In this document: positions 6,057 to 60,600 of the stretch, in pieces | How positions within the stretch are numbered: position 1 is the stretch's first letter | Layout: the number at the start of each line of letters is the position of its first letter | Assembly (NCBI GenBank): GCA_938004065.1 | Contig: CALKWM010000038.1 | Coordinates: 2,466-66,465 of the forward strand | DNA from: an uncultured bacterium | GTDB taxonomy: Bacteria; Patescibacteriota; JAHJAL01 | Reading direction: 5' to 3' | DNA: 64,000 bases | The notes under the pieces: generated by a model | Seen by the model: the letters and a program-made list of their open reading frames with translations, nothing else | Told to the model about the DNA's origin: nothing | Database searches by the model: none | Position numbers and translations under genes: made by a program

Positions 6057-6180
6057 GAATAGTGCTATATAAAATTAAAATATGGTATGGATCCCCAATC
6101 CGCCCGAGGCGGACAAGTTATCGAATCGCCCGCCGATCCGCATCGAGGATGACAAATAAGAAAATTAGATAGCACTATTC
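6057..6180. mobile_element. ~120-bp MITE with ~25-bp terminal inverted repeats (GAATAGTGCTAT...AATAAGAAAATTAGATAGCACTATTC) enclosing a palindromic core GGATCCCC...GAGGATGACA
   Basis: Seen in sequence. Homologous copies at 14706-14823 (both TIRs) and 46201-46300 (one TIR). Core also contains the CCGCCCGAGGCGGAC palindrome. Confidence 0.7.
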
Positions 6181-6333
6181 TTTAATATATCGATTATGTT
6201 TTTTGAATGATAGTATTCTGTAGGAAAATTTTTCATATATATTGATCATATAATAAATTTTTCCGGTTTGGAAAAAACAGCAAGGGAAATTATAATAGAA
6301 GTAGTCAATATATTCTTTTTTTGATGGAGGAAA

Positions 6334-10524: not shown

Positions 10525-10819
10525 TTTTTTTTATAAAAAAATTTATTAAATATATTTTGCGAAATGGCCCATGAAAAAGTCGAAACGTTGTATATTTTTT
10601 AAAACTTGCGGTCGGAAATGATAGATGTTTTTTAGCTAAAACATAAAAATTGTAGCAACATTTTTGCTTTTTTTCAAGGGTAGAAAAAAAGAAGATTTGA
10701 TAATGATTTTTTTTCAAATACCGCTTTGAAGGAAATAAAATGGTTAAATTGTTAAATTGTTATGCAATAATTTTCTCAACCATTTAGCCATTTAACAAAT
10801 TATATTTCTTAAGTATTTC

Positions 10820-14624: not shown

Positions 14625-14705
14625 AATAAGGGATATATTGTTATATGGCAATATTGTGAGTAATAAAATAGTTGCAAATTTGGCTGGAGAATTATTGAAT
14701 TAATG

Positions 14706-14823
14706 AGTTGTGCTAATTAATTTTCTTATCTGTCATCCTCGAATCGAAAGTCCGCCGAATCGGCGGGCGCTTCGATATCGGGGATCCATACCATATTTCT
14801 TATTTTTATTTAGCACTACTCAT
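14706..14823. mobile_element. MITE copy with both TIRs (GAGTTGTGCTAATTAATTTTCTTATC ... TTTCTTATTTTTATTTAGCACTACTCAT) around core TGTCATCCTCGA...GGGGATCCATACCAT
   Basis: Reverse-complement homologue of the 6057-6180 element. Confidence 0.7.
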
Positions 14824-15443: not shown

Positions 15444-17393
15444 TTGTTTATAATAAGGGTTATGAATAAAAATAAAGCAAAAACTTTTTGCATCATCACT
15501 TTCGGGTGTGCCATGAATTATAGCGACTCGGACCGAATCGAGGCAGTATTGAAGGAAAACGGTTTGGTTCCGACCAAAAAAGATATTGAGGCCGATTTAG
15601 TGATTATCAATAGTTGCAGTGTCCGGCAAATGGCGGAGGATAGAACATATGGCAAAATCAGTAAATTGGCCAAGTTGAAAAAAAGACCCAAAATAATAGC
15701 CACCGGTTGCTTGGTGTCGGACAAGATTTGGAAAAAATTGTTGGACAAAAACAAATTTGATTTGTGTTTGCCGATTGACCGGATGATTGAACTGCCGAAA
15801 TATCTGGCGGAATGGGGACTGAATTGTCATCCCGAACACGAAAGCGAGTCATCGAGCGTTTCGAGCGATTCGGGATCCCAGAAGAAAATTACCAATTACC
15901 AATTACCAATTACCAATAAAATTCCAAATTCCAAATTCCAAATTCCAAACGAAACATATCTGTCGTCCTCGAGTCGAATGAGTGAAGCGAATATCGACAT
16001 CGGGGATCCAGAAAATAAATCTAAAGTATCAAGTAATAAGTATCAAGGATCAAGTTTGGTGTCCCTCGAACCCGAAGGGTCCACATTGGGACAACTCGGG
16101 ACGATAAATAATGAGATCCTGAATGGCTCGAATAGCCCTGCGGGCTTTCGGGTTCAGGATGACACCAAAAAATACAAGCATTATCTCGACATTGTGCCGA
16201 AGGGGAAACAGACTTTTACGGCGTATATCCCAATCATGACCGGGTGCAATAATTTTTGTTCATATTGTGCGGTGCCATACACTAGAGGCCGCGAAGTTTC
16301 GCGGCCGATGGCGGATGTAATCAACGAAGCCAAGATATTGGCGGAAAATGGGTGTATCGACTTAACTTTGTTGGGGCAGAATGTGAACTCATATAAGTGT
16401 CATCCTGAACTCGGAAGCGAGTCATCGAGCGCTTCGAGCGATTCAGGATCCCAGAAGAAAATTACCAATTACCAATTACCAATTACCAATAAAATTCCAA
16501 ATTCCAAATTCCAAATTCCAAACGAAACATATTTGTCATCCTCGAGTCGAATGAGTGAAGCGGATATCGACAACGGGGATCCAGAAAATAAATATCAAAT
16601 CTCGAATAAATCGCATGGATCCCCGATCCTGCATCCGGGCATTCGCCGGACAGGTTCGCTGGACAAGTTAGCGAAGCGCCCGCCTAAACTAGGAGGGGGA
16701 AGTGAATTAAATAACTCTTTTGTGGAATTATTGCGAAGAGTATCGGATATTAAAGAATTAAAAAGAATATTTTTTATTTCCTCGCATCCGAAAGATATGT
16801 CGGAGGAGTTGATTAGTTTGGTGGCTAGTCGTGATAATTTGTGTAATTACATCCATTTGCCGGTACAGGCGGGAGATAATGAAATTTTAAAAAAGATGAA
16901 CCGGCATTACACACGTGAGCAATATCTTGATCTGGTGGCAATGATTAGAAATACTATTCCCAATGTTAGTTTGACGACAGATCTGATCGTTGGCTTTCCG
17001 GGCGAAAGCGAAAAACAATTTGAGCAATCAGTTGATTTATTCCGACGATGTAAATTTGATATGGCTTTTATCGCCGAGTATTCACCGCGACCCAAAACAG
17101 CCGCTGCTAATTTGAAAGATAATGTCCCCAAAGCGGAAAAACATAGACGAAAGAAGTTTTTAAATGACGAGGTGTTAGCAGTATCTGCACTTGAAAATAA
17201 CAAAAAACTGGAAGGCAAAATTATACCGGTTTTAATATCTCGAGCGAATAAAAATGGATTGATTGGGTTGACTGAAGGGTTAAAACAAGTGCATATCAAA
17301 GGGGATAAAAAAATGATCGGGCAGATTTTGCCGATCAAGATTGTTAAAGCAATGAAGTGGGCGCTGGAGGGAAGAGTTATCAATCATCGATAA
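15444..17393 (+). CDS. miaB: tRNA-i6A37 methylthiotransferase MiaB carrying two in-frame blocks of palindromic repeat-element insertions
   Basis: MTTase N-domain (FCIITFGCAMNYSDS), radical-SAM CNNFCSYCAV and a C-terminal TRAM-like region. 649 aa against ~440-450 expected. Extra ~200 aa map to 15825-16165 and 16398-16700 and consist of copies of the hairpin repeats found intergenically. Confidence 0.85.
   Translation: MFIIRVMNKNKAKTFCIITFGCAMNYSDSDRIEAVLKENGLVPTKKDIEADLVIINSCSVRQMAEDRTYGKISKLAKLKKRPKIIATGCLVSDKIWKKLLDKNKFDLCLPIDRMIELPKYLAEWGLNCHPEHESESSSVSSDSGSQKKITNYQLPITNKIPNSKFQIPNETYLSSSSRMSEANIDIGDPENKSKVSSNKYQGSSLVSLEPEGSTLGQLGTINNEILNGSNSPAGFRVQDDTKKYKHYLDIVPKGKQTFTAYIPIMTGCNNFCSYCAVPYTRGREVSRPMADVINEAKILAENGCIDLTLLGQNVNSYKCHPELGSESSSASSDSGSQKKITNYQLPITNKIPNSKFQIPNETYLSSSSRMSEADIDNGDPENKYQISNKSHGSPILHPGIRRTGSLDKLAKRPPKLGGGSELNNSFVELLRRVSDIKELKRIFFISSHPKDMSEELISLVASRDNLCNYIHLPVQAGDNEILKKMNRHYTREQYLDLVAMIRNTIPNVSLTTDLIVGFPGESEKQFEQSVDLFRRCKFDMAFIAEYSPRPKTAAANLKDNVPKAEKHRRKKFLNDEVLAVSALENNKKLEGKIIPVLISRANKNGLIGLTEGLKQVHIKGDKKMIGQILPIKIVKAMKWALEGRVINHR
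15825..16165. repeat. insertion block 1 in miaB: hairpin element TGTCATCCCGAAC..GATTCGGGATCC, heptamer repeats (ATTACCA)x3-(ATTCCAA)x4, element TGTCGTCCTCGAG..GGGGATCCA, element GTGTCCCTCGAACC..CTCGGGACGA, element GAGATCCTGAAT..GGGTTCAGGATGACA
   Basis: Seen in sequence. Same families occur in intergenic DNA (e.g. 21529, 24647, 19336). Confidence 0.8.
16398..16700. repeat. insertion block 2 in miaB: near-duplicate of block 1 (TGTCATCCTGAAC..GATTCAGGATCC, heptamers, TGTCATCCTCGAG..GGGGATCCA, GGATCCCCGATCC..GCGAAGCGCCCGCC)
   Basis: Encodes CHPELGSESSSASSDSGSQKKITNYQLPITNKIPNSKFQIPNETYLSSSSRMSEADIDNGDPENK, almost identical to the block-1 peptide. Confidence 0.8.
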
Positions 17394-18002: not shown

Positions 18003-18062
18003 AAATACACAACCACCCCATCCGCCCAGGGCGGATTGCCCCTCCTTCAAAAGGAGGGGAGT
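18003..18062. repeat. GC-rich palindromic repeat CACCCC..CCGCCCAGGGCGGA..CCCCTCCTTCAAAAGGAGGGG
   Basis: Homologous to the first element of the in-frame insertion in trmD (27117-27175). Confidence 0.6.
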
Positions 18063-18114: not shown

Positions 18115-19296
18115 ATGACAAGAAATAATTCTAAAAAAGTGAAGTTGGTGTGTATCGGGGGGCCGACAGCTTCGGGGAAAACCGAAGCATCTTTAGTATT
18201 GGCGGAAAAATTTGATGGAGCGATAATTTCCTGTGATTCGAGGCAGATTTACAAAGAGCTGGATGTTTCGACTGATAAAATACCATACTCTCTCCCCTAT
18301 CATGACCCGATTTTATATCGTGGTATAGAACATTATGGAATAAATGTCGCTGAGATTGATAAGCCATTCACATTGTTTGATTGGATGACATATTGCCGAG
18401 GAGCGATTGCCAAAATCGTAAATTCAGGGAAAATTCCATTTCTAGTGGGCGGGACCGGATTATACATTCAGTCAATTATTGAAAATTATAAATTGAAACA
18501 GGATTTTGATGCTGAGTTGAGAGAAGAATTGAATAAAATGTCATTGAAACAATTGCAGACGAGATTGAAAGAATTAAATCCTGATTTGTATGAAAAGATT
18601 GATGTTAATAATCCGCGGAGGGTGGTGAGAGGGATAGAAAGAGCCATTCTGTCATCCTCGAGTCGGAAGCCCGAAGGGCGATCAGACATCGGGGATCCAG
18701 AAAATAAATCTCAAATATCAAATATCAAATATCAAGCAAAAAAAACACATGGATCCCCGATAGCGAAGCGCCCGCCGAGTCGGTGGACTTTCGATTCGAG
18801 GATGACAAAAGAGAGTATCGTAAATCATTCTAAATCCCTGCACGAAGCGGATGGTAATGATGAAAACAATGAGATCCTGAATCGCTCGGAAACTCATCCG
18901 ATAAAAAATCGGATTCGTATCCGGGTTCAGGATGACAAAATAAAAAAATTTGACAGTCTGGTATTGTCATTTAATCCAGAGCGAGAGTTGATTAGACAAC
19001 GGATCGAGAATCGTGTCAAAAAACACCAAGAAATCGGAGTAATTGATGAGGTGAAAAGATTGGTAGAAAAATATGGGGCTGACAATCAGATCTTGAATTC
19101 TACTATTAGTGTGCAGGAATACATTCCATATGTTTTGGGAAAAATTTCATTGGAAAAAGCGCAAGAAAGGGTTGTTATAAATAATTATCAGTATGCCAAA
19201 AGGCAGATGACCTGGTTTAAGAAGTATGGAAATACGGTATTTGTCGATAGTGTAAAGGAGATGGAGAGAGAGATTGTTAAATGGATAAATGGATAA
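18115..19296 (+). CDS. miaA: tRNA dimethylallyltransferase MiaA with an in-frame ~96-aa insertion made of three hairpin repeat elements
   Basis: P-loop GGPTASGKTE, DSRQIYKELD, LVGGTGLY motifs. 393 aa against ~300 expected. Insertion 18650-18937. Confidence 0.85.
   Translation: MTRNNSKKVKLVCIGGPTASGKTEASLVLAEKFDGAIISCDSRQIYKELDVSTDKIPYSLPYHDPILYRGIEHYGINVAEIDKPFTLFDWMTYCRGAIAKIVNSGKIPFLVGGTGLYIQSIIENYKLKQDFDAELREELNKMSLKQLQTRLKELNPDLYEKIDVNNPRRVVRGIERAILSSSSRKPEGRSDIGDPENKSQISNIKYQAKKTHGSPIAKRPPSRWTFDSRMTKESIVNHSKSLHEADGNDENNEILNRSETHPIKNRIRIRVQDDKIKKFDSLVLSFNPERELIRQRIENRVKKHQEIGVIDEVKRLVEKYGADNQILNSTISVQEYIPYVLGKISLEKAQERVVINNYQYAKRQMTWFKKYGNTVFVDSVKEMEREIVKWING
18650..18937. repeat. insertion block in miaA: TGTCATCCTCGAG..GGGGATCCA; ATATCAA heptamer x3; GGATCCCCGA..GAGGATGACA; GAGATCCTGAAT..GGGTTCAGGATGACA
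   Basis: Seen in sequence. Translated in the same frame (LSSSSR...DIGDPENK) as the copies in miaB. Confidence 0.8.
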
Positions 19297-21528: not shown

Positions 21529-21981
21529 TGTCATCCTGAACCCGAATCCGCTCAGAGCGGATATCGAGCTATTCAGGATCTTGCAACTCATCACTTAGAA
21601 ACTTGGCAATACAAATCGTTCCAAGAAGAATTATTTCTCTCTATTAGTTTGACTTTTCAGGATATATTCCAGTCTTTTTAGTATTTTTTCTTTTCCAATG
21701 GCATCGTCAATATCATCAAACATCTCAAAATAAACGAGTTGATCAATATTGTATTTGGATGCAAAACATTTTATAATCCTATTTTTATGTGCCCAAACTC
21801 TACCCTTTAAATAATTTTTGACTCCAATATACAAAATCCCTTTTGCTCTATTTGCTAGAATATAAACATAATAATCATTTTTCATAATCTGATTTTTTCA
21901 ATTTAGAGAATAATTTAATATTAAGAGATCCTGAATTGCTCGATGTGCTCATAAAAATTCGCTTTCGGGTTCAGGATGACA
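21529..21981. mobile_element. GIY-YIG cassette: hairpin element (21529-21580, TGTCATCCTGAA..ATTCAGGATC), GIY-YIG ORF, inverted hairpin element (21925-21981, GAGATCCTGAAT..GGGTTCAGGATGACA)
   Basis: Outer ends are perfect inverted repeats TGTCATCCTGAAC / GTTCAGGATGACA. Second copy with the same architecture at 26029-26466. Confidence 0.6.
21631..21885 (-). CDS. GIY-YIG nuclease superfamily protein (YhbQ/URI-like)
   Basis: YYVYILANRAKGILYIGVKNYLKGRVWAHKN matches the GIY-(10-11)-YIG pattern of small URI-domain nucleases. Confidence 0.75.
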   Translation of the reverse strand: MKNDYYVYILANRAKGILYIGVKNYLKGRVWAHKNRIIKCFASKYNIDQLVYFEMFDDIDDAIGKEKILKRLEYILKSQTNREK

Positions 21982-25994: not shown

Positions 25995-26028
25995 CAATGT
26001 CAAATTGCGAGTAAATTTGTCATCCTGA

Positions 26029-26466
26029 ACCCGAAAGGTCCGTCTTCGGACCGCTTCGAGTGATTCAGGATCCCTCCAATTACCAGAATTGAATATCATT
26101 ATACAAATCATTCCAATTCGGATTTTCTTTTTCTATCAATTTTATTTTCCAACTTCTTTTCCAATCTTTTAACTTTTTTTCTCTGTATATTGCTTCATTG
26201 ATATCCTCAAATATTTCATAGTACACTATTTTATCAATATTATATTTTGATGTGAATCCTCTGATGATTTTGTTCTTATGTTCCCATACTCGACCCTTTA
26301 AAACACTTGTAACGCCAATATACAAACTAGCTCGTTTTTTGTTTGTTAAAATGTAGACATAATAAATATTTTTCATAATTATATTATCTAACTTAGTAAT
26401 TAAATATATATTAAGAGATCCTGAATTGCTTGAAGCGCCCTTCGGGCTTTCAGGTTCAGGATGACA
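26029..26466. mobile_element. second GIY-YIG cassette: hairpin element (26029-26085), GIY-YIG ORF, inverted hairpin element (26415-26466)
   Basis: Same architecture and flanks (..atattaagagatcctgaattgct..) as 21529-21981. An extra solo right end ..GCAAGTTCAGGATGACA at 26518-26534. Confidence 0.6.
26080..26376 (-). CDS. GIY-YIG nuclease superfamily protein (paralog of 21631-21885)
   Basis: YYVYILTNKKRASLYIGVTSVLKGRVWEHKN. Confidence 0.75.
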   Translation of the reverse strand: MKNIYYVYILTNKKRASLYIGVTSVLKGRVWEHKNKIIRGFTSKYNIDKIVYYEIFEDINEAIYREKKLKDWKRSWKIKLIEKENPNWNDLYNDIQFW

Positions 26467-26565: not shown

Positions 26566-27519
26566 ATGAAAATAGACATTATTACCCTATTTCCCGAGAT
26601 GTTTGCTGGTGTATTTGAGGCCAGTATTATCGGACGTGCCAGGGAAAAGGGCTTGATAGAGATAAATTTGCATAATCTCAGGGACTGGGCAGTCGATAAA
26701 CACAAAACCGTTGATGACACGCCTTATGGCGGAGGCGCGGGGATGGTGATCAAGGTGGAGGTGATGGACCGATGCCTGACAGACATAATTCAAAAATCAA
26801 AAATCAAAAATCAAAAAGGACAGGTTACAAACCTGTCCCTACAACGGATATTAATGACACCGCAGGGAAGGACATTTGATCAGAAAAAGGCGAGGGAGAT
26901 GGCGAAATTGGACCAAATCGTTTTGATCTGCGGGCATTACGAAGGATTTGATCAAAGAATTCATGAAAATTTGGTGGACGAGGAATTATCGATCGGAGAT
27001 TTTGTCCTGACCGGTGGAGAGATTCCGGCGATGGCGGTAGTAGATGCGGTAGCTCGACTGGTGCCGGGGGTGATCAAAGAAGAGTCACATATGAATGAGA
27101 GTTTTTCGGTGGTACCTGATAACCACCCCGCCACGCCTCATCGGCGGGAGCCCCTCCTTGAAAAGGAGGGGTGTAAAAAGAAGGAGAAAAGTGATGGATC
27201 CCCCCACCACACCGCCACGCCTTCGCTCATAAAAAGGGAGCTTCGGCGAGCTGCTCCTACTCGAACAGGGGGGAACTACCACCACCCCGAATCGGTCTGC
27301 GACCTTTCTACCCTTCCACTGGTCCACCCCAAAAATTGTTTCACAATTTCTGGGGACCCCGGGGCAGGAGGGGAATATAGACAAGATTTGTATCTAGAAT
27401 ATCCGCATTATACAAAACCGGCGGAATACAAAGGGTGGAAAGTGCCGGAGGTGCTAATGTCCGGCAATCACGCCGAGATTGAAAAATGGAGACAAAAAAA
27501 TATCAAAAAGAAGCCATGA
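26566..27519 (+). CDS. trmD: tRNA (guanine37-N1)-methyltransferase TrmD with two in-frame repeat insertions
   Basis: MKIDIITLFPEMF, GGGAGMV, LICGHYEGFDQR, LTGGEIPAMAVVDAV, SGNHAEIEKWR motifs. 317 aa against ~230-250 expected. Insertions at 26790-26850 and ~27115-27375. Confidence 0.85.
   Translation: MKIDIITLFPEMFAGVFEASIIGRAREKGLIEINLHNLRDWAVDKHKTVDDTPYGGGAGMVIKVEVMDRCLTDIIQKSKIKNQKGQVTNLSLQRILMTPQGRTFDQKKAREMAKLDQIVLICGHYEGFDQRIHENLVDEELSIGDFVLTGGEIPAMAVVDAVARLVPGVIKEESHMNESFSVVPDNHPATPHRREPLLEKEGCKKKEKSDGSPHHTATPSLIKRELRRAAPTRTGGNYHHPESVCDLSTLPLVHPKNCFTISGDPGAGGEYRQDLYLEYPHYTKPAEYKGWKVPEVLMSGNHAEIEKWRQKNIKKKP
26790..26850. repeat. in-frame insertion 1 in trmD: (AAAATCA)x3 heptamers + REP palindrome GGACAGGTTACAAACCTGTCCCTAC
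   Basis: Palindrome family also found intergenically at 6895, 42166 and 43118. Confidence 0.7.
27115..27375. repeat. in-frame GC-rich insertion 2 in trmD (CACCCCGCCACGCC..GCCCCTCCTTGAAAAGGAGGGG.. and further GC-rich palindromic units)
   Basis: Strong local GC shift inside a low-GC gene. First unit homologous to the intergenic element at 18003-18062. Sits between conserved ...EESFS and LEYPHYTKP... segments of TrmD. Confidence 0.65.
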
Positions 27520-44187: not shown

Positions 44188-44270
44188 GGTTTTTTGATAA
44201 TAATTTTACGGATCTATCTCCCCGCCCTTTGGGCAATTCAGAATGTTCAGTTATTCAAACCACCTTCATT

Positions 44271-44640
44271 TCTCAGGATGACAGAGATCCTGAATCGCTC
44301 GAGCGCTCGTATAACTCGCCTCGGGTTCAGGATGACATTGTAATTTGTTTGGAATTTGATTAGACAAGGATGGGTGGAACAACGTAGAACTCCTTCCATT
44401 TCTTAAGATGACAGAGATCCTGAATCGCTCGAGTGCTAGTATAACTCGCCTCGGGTTCAGGATGACATTGTGATTTGTTTGGAATTTGATTAGACAAGGA
44501 TGGGTGGAACAACGTAGAACTCCTTCCATTTCTTAAGATGACAGAGATCCTGAATCGCTCGAGTGCTCGTATAACTCGCCTCGGGTTCAGGATGACATTG
44601 TGATTTGTTTTCCGCCCAAGGCGGACCAGTCATAAACTGG
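44271..44640. repeat. tandem array, ~2.8 copies of a 130-bp unit (hairpin element GAGATCCTGAATCGCTCGAG..GGGTTCAGGATGACA + 73-bp spacer)
   Basis: Unit starts at 44284, 44414 and 44544. Spacers are identical between units. Confidence 0.8.
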
Positions 44641-44672
44641 GGAAATTGGAAATTGATACTTGGAAATTGTCC

Positions 44673-46200: not shown

Positions 46201-46300
46201 GGATCCCCAATCCAGCATTCGCCGGACAAGTTGTCTAATCGCTCGTCCCTCGCTTTCGACTCGAGGATGACAGATAAGAAAATTAATTAGCACTACTCAT
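46201..46300. mobile_element. MITE copy (core GGATCCCCAATCC..CGAGGATGACA + right TIR GATAAGAAAATTAATTAGCACTACTCAT; left TIR absent)
   Basis: Homologous to 6057-6180 and 14706-14823. Confidence 0.6.
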
Positions 46301-46389
46301 TAATTTAAGTTTGCTAAGTTTGAAAATTGGTATGCTTGATAAGTTTATAATTGATTCTAATCTAATTTAACCATAACTAATAATAAAAA

Positions 46390-57650: not shown

Positions 57651-60600
57651 TTAGAAGGTCGGCGTCGCGATATAGGTGATAGTGGTGGAATAGGTGCCGG
57701 GTGATTGGAATTTGGTTAGATTCAATCGATAACCGATACGAGTGATCTGGTCGGCTACGGGGCCGGAGTCATAGGCCACTTCTTGCGGTAGTGTGTCGAA
57801 AGCGGCCCATTTATCAGAAACGAAACGATCTACCGGTGAAGTAAAGAGCGAATCATCGGAAGTTGTATAACCGAAATACCCTTCGGTACCGGAGCCGGGA
57901 GGAGCGCTCCAAGTGGCCGGTGAAGAGTTGGAATGAGGGAAGTTTGAAATAGTGCCTGTTGCAGAAGTCATGGTCTGATCGTATTCGATAGTAACTACGT
58001 AACCGTCGGTAGCGTTGGTGGAAACTTGCAAATCATGAGCTTGGATACGGTCATCGGCATCGGAGTATAGACCAAAATCAACAGCGCCGGGGGAAGTGGT
58101 GGCAGAGGTGATAGTTGCACCGTTGACGTTGCCGGTGGCAACCGGTAAAATGTCGAAAGTTAGATATGATGGTACGGTGGCGGTTACGATAACAACGTGG
58201 TTTAAAAATACCATACCGTCCCCTATCTCAACCGGCTCACCAAAGCCACTCTGATTGTCATACAGGTTGTAACTCACCGAGAAAGAACCGGTACTGGATG
58301 GATTGGTCGGTTCGTTGAGGGCACCGATCGTAAATGATAGCTGGCCATCGGAATTGTCGATAGTGCCGGTAAATGGGAAGACGATAGCATCTTCACCGGC
58401 GGCATAACCGTGTTCAATCCACCATGCCCAGTGGTTGGCAACGATGGTACCGTCGTCGTAGATTATTTCATCGTTTGTCCAGGTAACATCACCACCACTG
58501 GCCGAGACGTCGTCTTTGGTTAGTTGTGAAAGATCATAATCATTGTGTAGTCGAATTTTGATACTACCATTGGAGATGGCGGTGGTAGTTAAATCAAGTG
58601 TGAACGTAACCAAGATATTTCCGGATTTTCCCGGATCGGAAGTTTCAAGCAATGCCCTCATACCTCCACCGGCTAAATTTTCATCAACTTCGTAATCGAT
58701 TTGATATGAATTGGTGGATTTGTTGCCGGCTACGTCCATGCAACGCATAAATACTGACTTGAAGCCGTCGGAATAATGGGCAACCGTACAATTGGTGGTG
58801 CTTTCACAAGTGCCGGTCATAGAGTCGTAAGCAACATTGGAATTACTCCATTTGCAGGCGACGGCGTCGGTGTCGGCAGTGTAAACGATCAAGGCCACGC
58901 CATCTTCGACGATATCAACATAGGGTGCCTGGGTGTCACCAGCGACGGAGCTAACGGTTAAAACATTGGGGACTATGCTGTCTATGGTGTAATTGACTTC
59001 ATAACTACTGGTCATCTTGTTGCCGGCTTCGTCACGACATCTAATATAAACAGTTTTGGCACCTTGACCGGAAAGATTGGCGGTACAATTGCCGGCCGAA
59101 GTACAAGTGTTGGGCATACTATCGTACGCCTGATCTACGAAAGACCATTTGCACTCGGTTGGGTCGCCACTGGTGTTGTATAGTATCTGAGTGGAACTAT
59201 CGTCGGTAGTGTCATAATAAGGCGAAGTGGTGTCGCCGGCAATTGATGTGATTGATGTGATTGACGGTGGAGTAGCATCAATAGTGTAATTTAGAACATA
59301 TGATGTTGGAGAATCCAGTTCGTTGGCATCACGGCAACGCATATAGACAGTTTTGGCGGTTTCGCCGGTAAGATCCAGATTACAATTGGAGGTATCGGTA
59401 CAAGTATTGGCCATAGCGCCGTAAGTCAAATCGGTTTCGTCCCATTTGCAACTGACGGCATCGGCCGAAGCGGTATAAATCACGTCTGTTGAGCCATCGT
59501 CAGTAGTGTCGTAATAAGTAGTAGTGGTATCACCGGCGACAGAGGTAATGGAAATAACTTCCGGCGGGGTGGAATCGATGGTGTAGTTGAGAGTGTAAGA
59601 AGATGAAGCCGCATTGTCAGCGCCGTCGATACATCGCAGGTAAACCGTATGGGCGGATTCGCCGGTCAGATTGAGTGTACAATGAGAGGAGTCAGTACAA
59701 CTATTGACCATAGCGCCGTAAGTTAAATCGGTTTCGTCCCATTTGCATCCGGTAACGCCGGTTAAATTGTCTGAAGAAGTAAATACGACCTGGGTATTAC
59801 CATCATCGGTAGTATCGACATAAGGGGCAGAAGTATCGCCAGCCACTGAAGTAATGGAATCAATGGTCGGTGCGGTTTTGTCGTATCTGGTCTCGTAGTT
59901 GTATTCATCGCCCCAGATGTCAGCCGAAGAGAACGGCCGAACATGCATGAAATGTATGCCTTCGGTAAATAAATAATTGTCAATATTGGAGTCGAGAGAA
60001 AGTTTTCGTAAATATTCATTGGATATTTCAGAAGGACTTAGAGCTTGATCAAAAATTTTCACCTCGTCTATGTCTCCATTAAATCTTCTCAGTACACTGC
60101 TCCATGAGATATAAATATCGCCATTGGAATTTTTGATGTTACCGGTAAAAGGATTTGAGTCTTCAAGCTGACCATTAATATAAAGTGATACATTACTACC
60201 GTCATAAACACCAACCACATGCGTCCAGACTCCATTATTTATTGTTGATGAAGAAATGGCATCGCCATAAGAGCCGGAAGTATTTTGGACATAGAACCGC
60301 CAATAGGGATTATACATTTGAAGATAAAAATCATCTCCTCCGCTATGCGGATCAGTACAAACCAGAGCATCATAACTGCTCACTGCTGCATTCCTTTTGA
60401 CCCAGGCCGATACCGTGATGGCATTTGACGGATGCAGTTCAATCGAGGAAGGTATTGTGACGTGATCATTTACGCCATCAAATGTTCTGGCATTACCCAA
60501 TTGGCCGGTGGTAACAGTCGATTCACTTAAAGTTCCATGGTTTCCTTCCCCACTGTGATCAAACGCTGTCGTAGTATTATCATTTTCAAAATTCCACCAG

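Follow-up and report, generated by a model that had tools for sequence, protein, structure and literature searches.

Short palindromic repeats that occur both in intergenic DNA and in frame within otherwise intact genes have been described as Rickettsia palindromic elements (RPEs; Ogata et al. 2000/2002, as presented in PMC3733652). Two of them, RPE-4 and RPE-6 of Rickettsia conorii, were included together with dRS3 in the superfamily of "CGTC-tagged REP" (repetitive extragenic palindrome) sequences, which have an 8–9-bp stem, a 3-bp tail and a loop of 4–5 nt (Di Nocera et al. 2013; PMC3733652). According to the same authors, intragenic CGTC REPs are found in several species, their clusters encode 43–82 aa, and the genes concerned include those for tRNA synthetases and truB. 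A nuclease partner of such hairpins is known from Neisseria, where SsnA, a 94-aa single-domain GIY-YIG protein, cuts single-stranded DNA (ssDNA) just upstream of the hairpin; the ssnA genes are flanked by NTS (CGTCATTCCCGCGMAVGCGGGAATCYRG, built around dRS3) and "Ssn-related motifs" (SRMs) in an NTS-ssnA-NTS architecture, and the partner proteins are those of CDD family cd10448 (Chenal et al. 2025; PMC11893778). In N. meningitidis, 2% of the NTS copies lie inside genes, and the authors raise, without evidence, the idea that paired Ssn cuts act as in an insertion sequence (IS) (PMC11893778). The present report concerns a 64,000-nt stretch of DNA (hereafter, the window) from an uncultured bacterium of the Patescibacteriota (contig CALKWM010000038.1, positions 2,466 to 66,465), in which miaA, the gene for tRNA dimethylallyltransferase, carries an in-frame cluster of hairpin elements. 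It is likely that these are non-autonomous copies related to CGTC REPs and Ssn hairpins, which spread in this lineage, were kept in frame by selection in permissive loops and are translated as a disordered loop, probably with neutral or mildly deleterious effect.

The miaA Gene and Its Insert

MiaA of the window gives only one Pfam match (IPPT; E-value, 2 × 10−52; residues 44–370), with no Hint/intein domain, and its P-loop and DSRQ motifs are invariant in the alignment with relatives. A search of 5.8 billion proteins revealed that the nearest homologues are from Patescibacteria (55–72% identity over aligned columns) and are 285–320 aa in length, which agrees with a preliminary description of the window, where the 393-aa protein had been called longer than typical. 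In the alignment, the closest relatives lack about 85 residues between ...IERAIL and FDSLVLSF. The in-frame insert of miaA occupies positions 18650–18937 (288 nt) and comprises three hairpins and an AAATATC run:

18115–19296, + strand: miaA, tRNA dimethylallyltransferase, 393 aa, intact, insert-bearing (ORF, Pfam IPPT match and motifs)
18650–18699, + strand: A-type hairpin with its head (TGTCAT) at the left, read (L)SSSSRKPEGRSDIGDP; DNA fold −11.1 kcal/mol, z −2.15
18706–18735, + strand: AAATATC heptamer run, 4.3 units (Tandem Repeats Finder)
18750–18807, − strand: A-type hairpin in the opposite orientation, read GSPIAKRPPSRWTFDSRMT; 82% complementary to the intergenic A copy at 14724–14811
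18808–18870, + strand: 63-nt spacer KESIVNHSKSLHEADGNDENN, with a GC content of 0.37, like the host gene (sequence, composition)
18871–18937, − strand: B-type hairpin, 67 nt, read EILNRSETHPIKNRIRIRVQDD; DNA fold −14.5 kcal/mol, z −3.83

All three hairpins and the heptamer run were found where the preliminary description had placed them, but the first two of its three hairpin types represent one family in opposite orientations. The arms of the A(+) copy at 18650–18699 are TGTCATCCTCGAG...GGGGATCCA, and its fold consists of the TGTC tail, the outer stem and an inner GCCC/GGGC hairpin. The arms of the B-type copy at 18871–18937 are GAGATCCTGAAT...GTTCAGGATGACA.

With a GC content of 0.45, the insert exceeds the remainder of the gene (0.37); of 100 insert residues, 77 are polar, charged, Gly or Pro. 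Sequence alignment with Bacillus halodurans MiaA (PDB 2qgn), a mapping that had been proposed in the preliminary description, places the insert between residues ~180 and 183 of that structure. In the AlphaFold2 model, residues 184–275 have a predicted local distance difference test (pLDDT) score below 50 and no secondary structure, with flanks at about 90, and this low-confidence segment sits between helix 167–182 and strand 279–286. The insert resembles a disordered loop on the protein surface, gained recently at a linker that varies naturally, and it is probably translated as a floppy hydrophilic loop of about 96 residues. It is not an assembly artefact, since an independent ENA assembly (L120) is identical to the window over 7182 nt except for one base; furthermore, the MiaA protein cluster is present on 4–5 contigs. 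A word-indexed protein search with the 100-aa insert peptide yielded no matches, and no Rfam family was detected in the whole window at gathering thresholds.

Hairpin Elements of the Window

A and B are sister hairpin families, and each of them is found in both orientations. The sequence GTCATCCTSRA, which comprises tag and stem, occurs 18 times in the window, as compared to 0.10 occurrences expected from shuffles. About 20 full copies of 46–73 nt can be delimited; they start with TGTCATCC (in one case, with TGTCGTCC), and this non-palindromic 5′ tag gives the hairpin its orientation. In the common build, the TGTCAT tag is followed by an outer stem of 8 bp (ATCCTGAA or ATCCTCGA), which encloses an inner hairpin of variable sequence, and by an ...ATC tail; the A-type copies end with GGGGATCCAG. 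In the ssDNA folds (z-scores mostly −2 to −4.5), TGTC is unpaired, the outer stem is formed by ATCCTGAA/TTCAGGAT or ATCCTCGA/TCGGGGAT, and the 3-nt 3′ tail is unpaired as well. The arms of the outer stem are separated by 27–43 nt, including the GC-rich inner hairpin, the sequence of which varies from copy to copy. The tag tetranucleotide is TGTC in the copies of the window and either CGTC or TGTC in related copies of other genomes. Eight of the 20 window copies are genic and fall into three clusters, and the other 12 are intergenic. A loose hairpin finder was also tried and was dropped because of false positives inside genes.

Pfam scans of the main open reading frames (ORFs) of at least 100 codons outside the features described here detected no transposase of any kind and no RAYT in the window. 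A full-text literature search for the element sequence returned unrelated primer matches only.

Three intergenic A-type hairpins (6143–6189, 14695–14750 and 46253–46308) share an additional flank of about 35 nt, TTAATGAGT.GTGCTAATTAATTTTCTTATC, with up to 95% identity. All three flanked copies are located upstream of genes, and the flank, which may carry a promoter or an operator, is missing from the genic A copies. At 44258–44647, between a NUDIX gene and one for a sugar transferase, a 130-nt unit is repeated three times in tandem (identity to the reference copy, 93% and 68%), and each repeat holds a B-type hairpin beside a second TGTCATC-tagged segment.

Insertions in miaB and trmD

Two further genes of the window carry in-frame hairpin insertions, which can be compared with a syntenic relative (JGI contig L121):

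15825–16164, + strand: miaB insertion site 1, a mosaic of B(+), heptamer runs, A(+), another hairpin and B(−), 113 aa; absent from the 461-aa MiaB of the relative
16398–16700, + strand: miaB insertion site 2, with B(+), heptamer runs, A(+) and a truncated A(−), right boundary approximate; absent from the relative
27106–27375, + strand: in-frame insertion in trmD, of a different GC-rich hairpin family (CCCCTCCTTGAAAAGGAGGGG type), boundaries approximate

Both miaB sites fall in variable regions: site 1 in the linker that joins the UPF0004 domain to the radical-SAM domain, and site 2 in a loop for which the relative already has 31 aa. Over its first 215 nt, site 2 shares 93% identity with site 1, suggesting that a block was recently duplicated inside the gene. 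The A(+) hairpin reads LSSSSR..(I/N)GDPENK in miaA and at both miaB sites; thus, the reading that the preliminary description had noted as common to the two genes is borne out, with one variable residue (I/N). Moreover, A(−) starts with HGSPI in both genes, although only the miaA copy is complete, ending with SRMT, and B(−) reads NNEILN..RVQDD in both. In total, 89 nt are common to the miaA and miaB blocks at 79–81% identity. When 1.8 billion representatives were searched exhaustively with HMMER, the 113-aa insert of miaB recovered MiaB itself and low-complexity noise only, suggesting that the mosaics are lineage-specific; such a search cannot list other host proteins.

The trmD gene (26566–27519) encodes 317 aa vs. 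267 aa in the syntenic relative, and its insert of roughly 85–90 aa belongs to a hairpin family with 58% GC. The CCCCTCCTTGAAAAGGAGGGG sequence is also found in intergenic DNA at 18039–18059, upstream of miaA.

Reading Frames and Stop Codons

It had been suggested in the preliminary description that only frame-compatible, stop-free insertions survive, and the frames support this. The inserted blocks contain no stops in the frame of the gene and 2–10 stops in the other frames, and the only exception to this bias is one antisense frame of the trmD block, which is stop-free too. In the case of miaA, the other two sense frames contain five and seven stops. The probability of an open frame in composition-matched shuffles is 0.0035 for the miaA block, 0.001 and 0.003 for the miaB blocks, and 0.046 for the trmD block; as delimited, three of the four have a length divisible by three. 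As the frames are stop-free, selection is likely to keep them open, which argues for translation, and against both a pseudogene and a skipped or spliced insert. Ordinary pseudogenisation was not observed over the 64 kb surveyed: no gene within the window is broken by an element copy, and the flanking genes are complete and syntenic.

The frame common to miaA and miaB is mostly forced, since the elements carry TGA codons in fixed phases:

B, sense: TGA frame TCA TCC TGA; open, CHPE..DSGS and VILN..IQD
B, antisense: TGA in ATCCTGA and GGATGA; open, ILN..VQDD only (genic copies)
A, antisense: TGA frame GGA TGA; two frames open, including the ..SRMT frame used in miaA
A, sense, two miaB copies: stops in two frames; open, SSS frame only

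The A(+) copy of miaA is open in all three sense frames, and the B(−) copy at 18871–18937 in just one antisense frame. Among viable arrangements, miaA and miaB would agree in frame with a probability of about 1 in 6, and the homology of the 89-nt block further reduces the independence of the two frames. The other suggestion of the preliminary description, a coding-compatible design of the elements, is weakly indicated: the intergenic copies have 40 of 72 frames open, as compared to 32.2 ± 3.8 in shuffles (P ~0.03).

GIY-YIG Units and Empty Sites in a Syntenic Relative

Two ssn-like units of about 450 bp each, in which inverted B-type hairpins bracket a small minus-strand GIY-YIG ORF, are located 2.6 and 7 kb downstream of the miaA insert:

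21529–21981, − strand: unit 1, B(+) hairpin, GIY-YIG ORF 21634–21885 (84 aa) and B(−) hairpin; PF01541, E-value, 4 × 10−10
26018–26466, − strand: unit 2, B(+) hairpin, intact 98-aa GIY-YIG ORF 26083–26376 and B(−) hairpin; PF01541, E-value, 6.5 × 10−15

The C-terminus encoded by the unit 1 ORF is apparently frameshifted. The GIY-YIG protein has no named match in NCBIfam or the PDB.

Contig L121 is syntenic with the window, with thrS, miaB, miaA, pbp2, folD, the TrmB-family regulator gene, rluA and trmD found in the same order and with protein identities of 67–73%. No copy of the hairpin elements or of the GIY-YIG units was found in 21 kb of this contig, and the sites compare as follows:

MiaB: 461 aa in L121, 649 aa in the window
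MiaA: 320 aa in L121, 393 aa in the window
TrmD: 267 aa in L121, 317 aa in the window
pbp2-folD spacer: 36 nt in L121 (empty site), ~470 nt with GIY-YIG unit 1 in the window
rluA/trmD: overlapping genes in L121 (empty site), ~570 nt apart with GIY-YIG unit 2 in the window

The lack of inserts in a relative at this identity indicates that they are recent and dispensable. Based on these sequences, the elements appear to have multiplied in this Patescibacteria lineage after its split from the closest sampled relative.

Aligning the miaA linker DNA globally (MAFFT) with its counterpart in the relative was uninformative. The linker of L121 is a (CAAATCC)x4 run, to which the heptamer run of the window aligns locally (2 of 300 shuffles score as well). 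Thus, the run is probably ancestral, and the hairpins would have entered on either side of it. Local alignment of the 63-nt spacer (18808–18870) with the L121 linker gave no significant similarity. The entry of A(+), spacer and A(−) as one REPIN-like doublet was considered and thought less likely, because the spacer may represent the ancestral linker.

Heptamer Runs and Other Tandem Repeats

Perfect or near-perfect runs of about four heptanucleotide units (AATTACC, AAATTCC, AAATATC, TCAAAAA and CAAATCC) are present inside miaB, miaA and trmD, at 15887–15949, 16460–16522, 18706–18735 and 26790–26817 of the window, at 10547–10580 of L121 and in the L121 trmD. Similar runs fill many intergenic regions. 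Since the gain or loss of one 7-nt unit shifts the frame, the runs could act as slippage switches; no variation in their length was seen between the two assemblies compared. Elsewhere in the window, four tandem 297-nt repeats (58741–59747; 61–82% identity over the matched core of 116 nt) form part of an ORF of 1486 aa that has a Laminin_G_3 domain and probably encodes a repetitive surface protein.

Distribution in Other Phyla

Species-representative genomes were scanned once with GTCATCCTGAAC-N20-50-ATTCAGGATC, which yielded at least 119 loci. Those listed belong to Campylobacterota, Bacteroidota, Alpha- and Gammaproteobacteria, Armatimonadota, Calditrichota, Spirochaetota, Actinomycetota and many Patescibacteria. 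A near-identical 25-nt core hairpin is found in Campylobacterota, Bacteroidota, Armatimonadota, Patescibacteria and other phyla. Among the loci listed, the commonest form outside the candidate phyla radiation is a minimal GTCATCCTGAACTTGATTCAGGATC, and the minimal form of the other phyla, GTCATCCTGAAC-TTG-ATTCAGGATC, has a short loop. The minimal GTCATCCTGAACTTGATTCAGGATC often follows one to three tandem half-sites, GTCATCCTGAAC plus a spacer of 8–10 nt, with a period of 18–22 nt (L005, L007, L011, L031, L051, L056, L098, L113 and others). These half-sites look like slippage products or multiple binding sites.

In 13 of the cross-phylum loci listed, the copy lies inside a long open frame, and ten of these frames were confirmed as real proteins by Pfam:

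L004: GT1 glycosyltransferase, Sulfurimonas
L017: class-V aminotransferase (NifS-like), Wolfebacteria
L042: DnaX, Gammaproteobacteria metagenome-assembled genome (MAG)
L049: ABC ATPase (SufC-like), Curtissbacteria
L057: GT2 glycosyltransferase, Pseudomonadales MAG
L074: RecJ, Pseudomonadales MAG
L087: UppP, Saccharibacteria
L096: methyltransferase, Gracilibacteria
L110: NamZ, Pontimicrobium isolate (Flavobacteriaceae)
L117: MiaB/RimO-like protein, Armatimonadota

In the radical-SAM protein of L117 (3577–5115 of JBPOHN010000004.1), the sequence RHPEPGRHPELDSGS, a half-site plus a minimal B hairpin, occupies the same loop as miaB site 2, suggesting that the same family independently struck the same permissive loop in another phylum. 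In-frame copies were also detected in ValRS and CysRS on metagenome contigs. The pattern used for the metagenome scan was too degenerate: about 30 of 121 matches are real elements, and the rest is ordinary coding sequence such as VILDPEG. Together with the ten Pfam-confirmed proteins, the two synthetases bring the in-frame copies to at least 12 other proteins from several phyla. The frames used by in-frame copies elsewhere are the ones predicted to be open, namely, CHPE..DSGS (four copies), VILN..IQDL (one), ILN..VQDD (six), SSSSR..GIGD (one) and ..DSRMT (one).

According to tblastn, GIY-YIG ORFs are present in nine of the 119 cross-phylum loci listed. All eight GIY-YIG ORFs inspected, from seven of these loci, have GTCAT-tagged hairpins immediately on both sides, the stems of which differ from locus to locus. 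At seven of the eight ORFs the heads point outward (GTCAT-stem-loop-stem-ATC upstream and the inverse downstream), whereas the upstream copies of L092 are reversed. In L035, the GIY-YIG homologue is 59% identical to that of the window, and the hairpins that flank it, at distances of 17 and 34 nt, fit the published search sequence for SRMs exactly.

Comparison with Described Systems

The elements of the window share with SRM and NTS sequences the GTCAT tag, the 8–9-bp stem, the ATC(YRG) tail, a defined orientation, occurrence in clusters and presence in many phyla, as well as their position on both sides of a single-domain GIY-YIG gene (~94 aa; here, 84 and 98 aa) with heads outward. In contrast to SRM and NTS, the window copies start with TGTC instead of CGTC, have AT-richer stems and a 27–43-nt loop with a second hairpin, and are genic in eight of 20 cases, as compared to the 2% of N. 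meningitidis. The 8-bp outer stem and 3-nt unpaired tail of their folds are likewise those of CGTC-tagged REPs.

Similar to RPEs, they are palindromic repeats in frame in an intact gene at a permissive loop, sometimes several per gene, and a tRNA-modifying enzyme is among the hosts in both cases (truB in R. conorii for RPEs). Unlike RPEs, they reside in a Patescibacteria host, and their mosaics with heptamer runs encode 96–113 aa, compared to clusters of 43–82 aa. The link to RPEs runs through the published equation of RPE-4 and RPE-6 with CGTC REPs. REP/REPIN-RAYT systems also have inverted hairpins bracketing a putative mobilising gene, non-autonomous doublets, no target-site duplication and occasional intragenic copies; however, the tag in the window is GTCAT and not GTAG, and the partner is a GIY-YIG nuclease and not an HUH Y1 transposase. 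Classical miniature inverted-repeat transposable elements (Correia/NEMIS, RUP, ERIC) are, like the present elements, short, non-coding, structured, multi-copy and sometimes in frame in genes, but neither terminal inverted repeats derived from a DDE IS nor target-site duplications were seen here.

In-frame palindromic repeats (RPEs, 2000–2002; intragenic CGTC/GTAG REPs, 2013) and the partnership of hairpin and GIY-YIG protein (2025) are already published. Novel aspects are the phylum of the host, a two-tier variant of the hairpin with a long loop, which the published search pattern misses, the mosaic size of 96–113 aa, the explicit link of Ssn-type hairpins to translated inserts across phyla, and the filled vs. 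empty syntenic sites of the nuclease units.

Origin of the Inserts and Alternative Explanations

Taken together, the observations are best accommodated by non-autonomous Ssn-type hairpin repeats that would have spread in this Patescibacteria lineage. A few copies would have landed in naturally variable linkers of miaA and miaB, and those of another hairpin family in trmD; in MiaA, the loop would follow the last helix of the insertion domain and precede the next strand of the core. Selection on needed genes would then leave the arrangements that keep the frame and avoid the built-in TGA codons. Because the host genes are needed, only stop-free in-frame arrangements would persist, hence the same element in the same frame in miaA and miaB. 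The GIY-YIG nuclease may mobilise the copies: with heads outward, Ssn would cut upstream of each head and on opposite strands, as at the ends of insertion sequences. The effect of the insert on MiaA is probably neutral or mildly deleterious.

Several points weigh against this explanation. Neither a target-site duplication nor a consistent target is visible, and the left and right flanks differ from each other in both GIY-YIG units as well as in the genic inserts. The SRM search sequence, HGTCWYN(0-2)YYVSBRHN(0-5)WNVSBRGN(0-2)RNCYNB, has no matches in the window, as the loops are too long (27–43 nt vs. the 4–5 nt of CGTC-tagged REPs) and the stems too AT-rich. Membership in the class would therefore follow from architecture and gene association instead of a published model, although the L035 hairpins, which do match the SRM sequence and stand beside a 59%-identical GIY-YIG protein, provide a bridge from the window to the published definition. 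Movement of hairpins by Ssn nucleases is a proposal, and the translation of the insert is deduced from its open frame. All three insert-bearing genes of the window encode tRNA-modifying enzymes, which could hint at something beyond neutral tolerance, and the survey covers 64 kb of this genome.

The host genes also speak for an alternative in which the elements have a form suited to translation and the loops equip MiaA, MiaB and TrmD with a new function, such as regulation or the binding of RNA or a partner. The slight excess of open frames among the intergenic copies, the Armatimonadota MiaB/RimO-like protein with the same hairpin family in the site 2 loop, and the copies in two aminoacyl-tRNA synthetases of metagenomes point in the same direction. 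Recurrence in one loop is, however, expected if the loop is simply permissive, and the hosts elsewhere (SufC, UppP, RecJ, DnaX, glycosyltransferases) are unrelated. Given, in addition, that the insert is predicted to be disordered, that relatives at 67–73% identity do without it, that each orientation has fixed TGA codons in one to two frames and that 12 of 20 window copies are intergenic, such exaptation appears improbable. A bolder extension of the favoured explanation is that the GIY-YIG gene with its inverted hairpins is an active, horizontally spreading IS-like mobile element of an undemonstrated kind, hairpin derivatives of which would systematically remodel the loops of translation-related enzymes in reduced genomes. 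This possibility, raised because of the two filled vs. empty syntenic sites and the near-identical core hairpin across phyla, is regarded as rather doubtful. The genic copies might also still act as Ssn cleavage sites on ssDNA, thereby coupling recombination or repair of the host genes to the nuclease.

The remaining two alternatives dispense with a translated loop. In yeast mitochondria, GC-rich hairpin insertions in genes, known as byps, are bypassed by ribosomes, and the stable hairpins formed by the present elements would fit a similar removal or skipping of the insert before the mature protein, as a mini-intron, an intein or a programmed translational bypass, with the frame being irrelevant. 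None of these requires an open frame, yet the four blocks are stop-free in the gene frame (P 0.001–0.046 each) and three of them are exact multiples of three as delimited; with no intron or other RNA family in the window according to Rfam, and no Hint/intein domain in MiaA according to Pfam, this explanation is very unlikely. Even less credit can be given to miaA as a decaying pseudogene, or to the region as a repeat chimera created during assembly. The gene is unusually long, and a repeat-rich mosaic could indeed confuse assemblers, but an independent assembly differs by one mismatch in 7182 nt and the protein cluster recurs on 4–5 contigs, the ORF is intact over 393 codons with conserved catalytic motifs, the flanking domains are modelled with pLDDT ~90, and the neighbouring genes are all intact and syntenic with those of the relative.

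Implications

If the hairpins of miaA are Ssn-related repeats maintained in frame, a phenomenon best known from Rickettsia, that of selfish palindromes translated in essential genes, would extend to Patescibacteria, with the same family found in other phyla. Translated palindromes would, at the same time, be tied to the system of Ssn GIY-YIG nuclease and hairpin described in 2025. The filled vs. empty syntenic sites provide comparative evidence that both the nuclease-hairpin units and the solo hairpins are inserted DNA, a question left open by published work. Inserts of this kind inflate the lengths of proteins and, in metagenome-assembled genomes, can lead annotation, domain calling and homology modelling astray.

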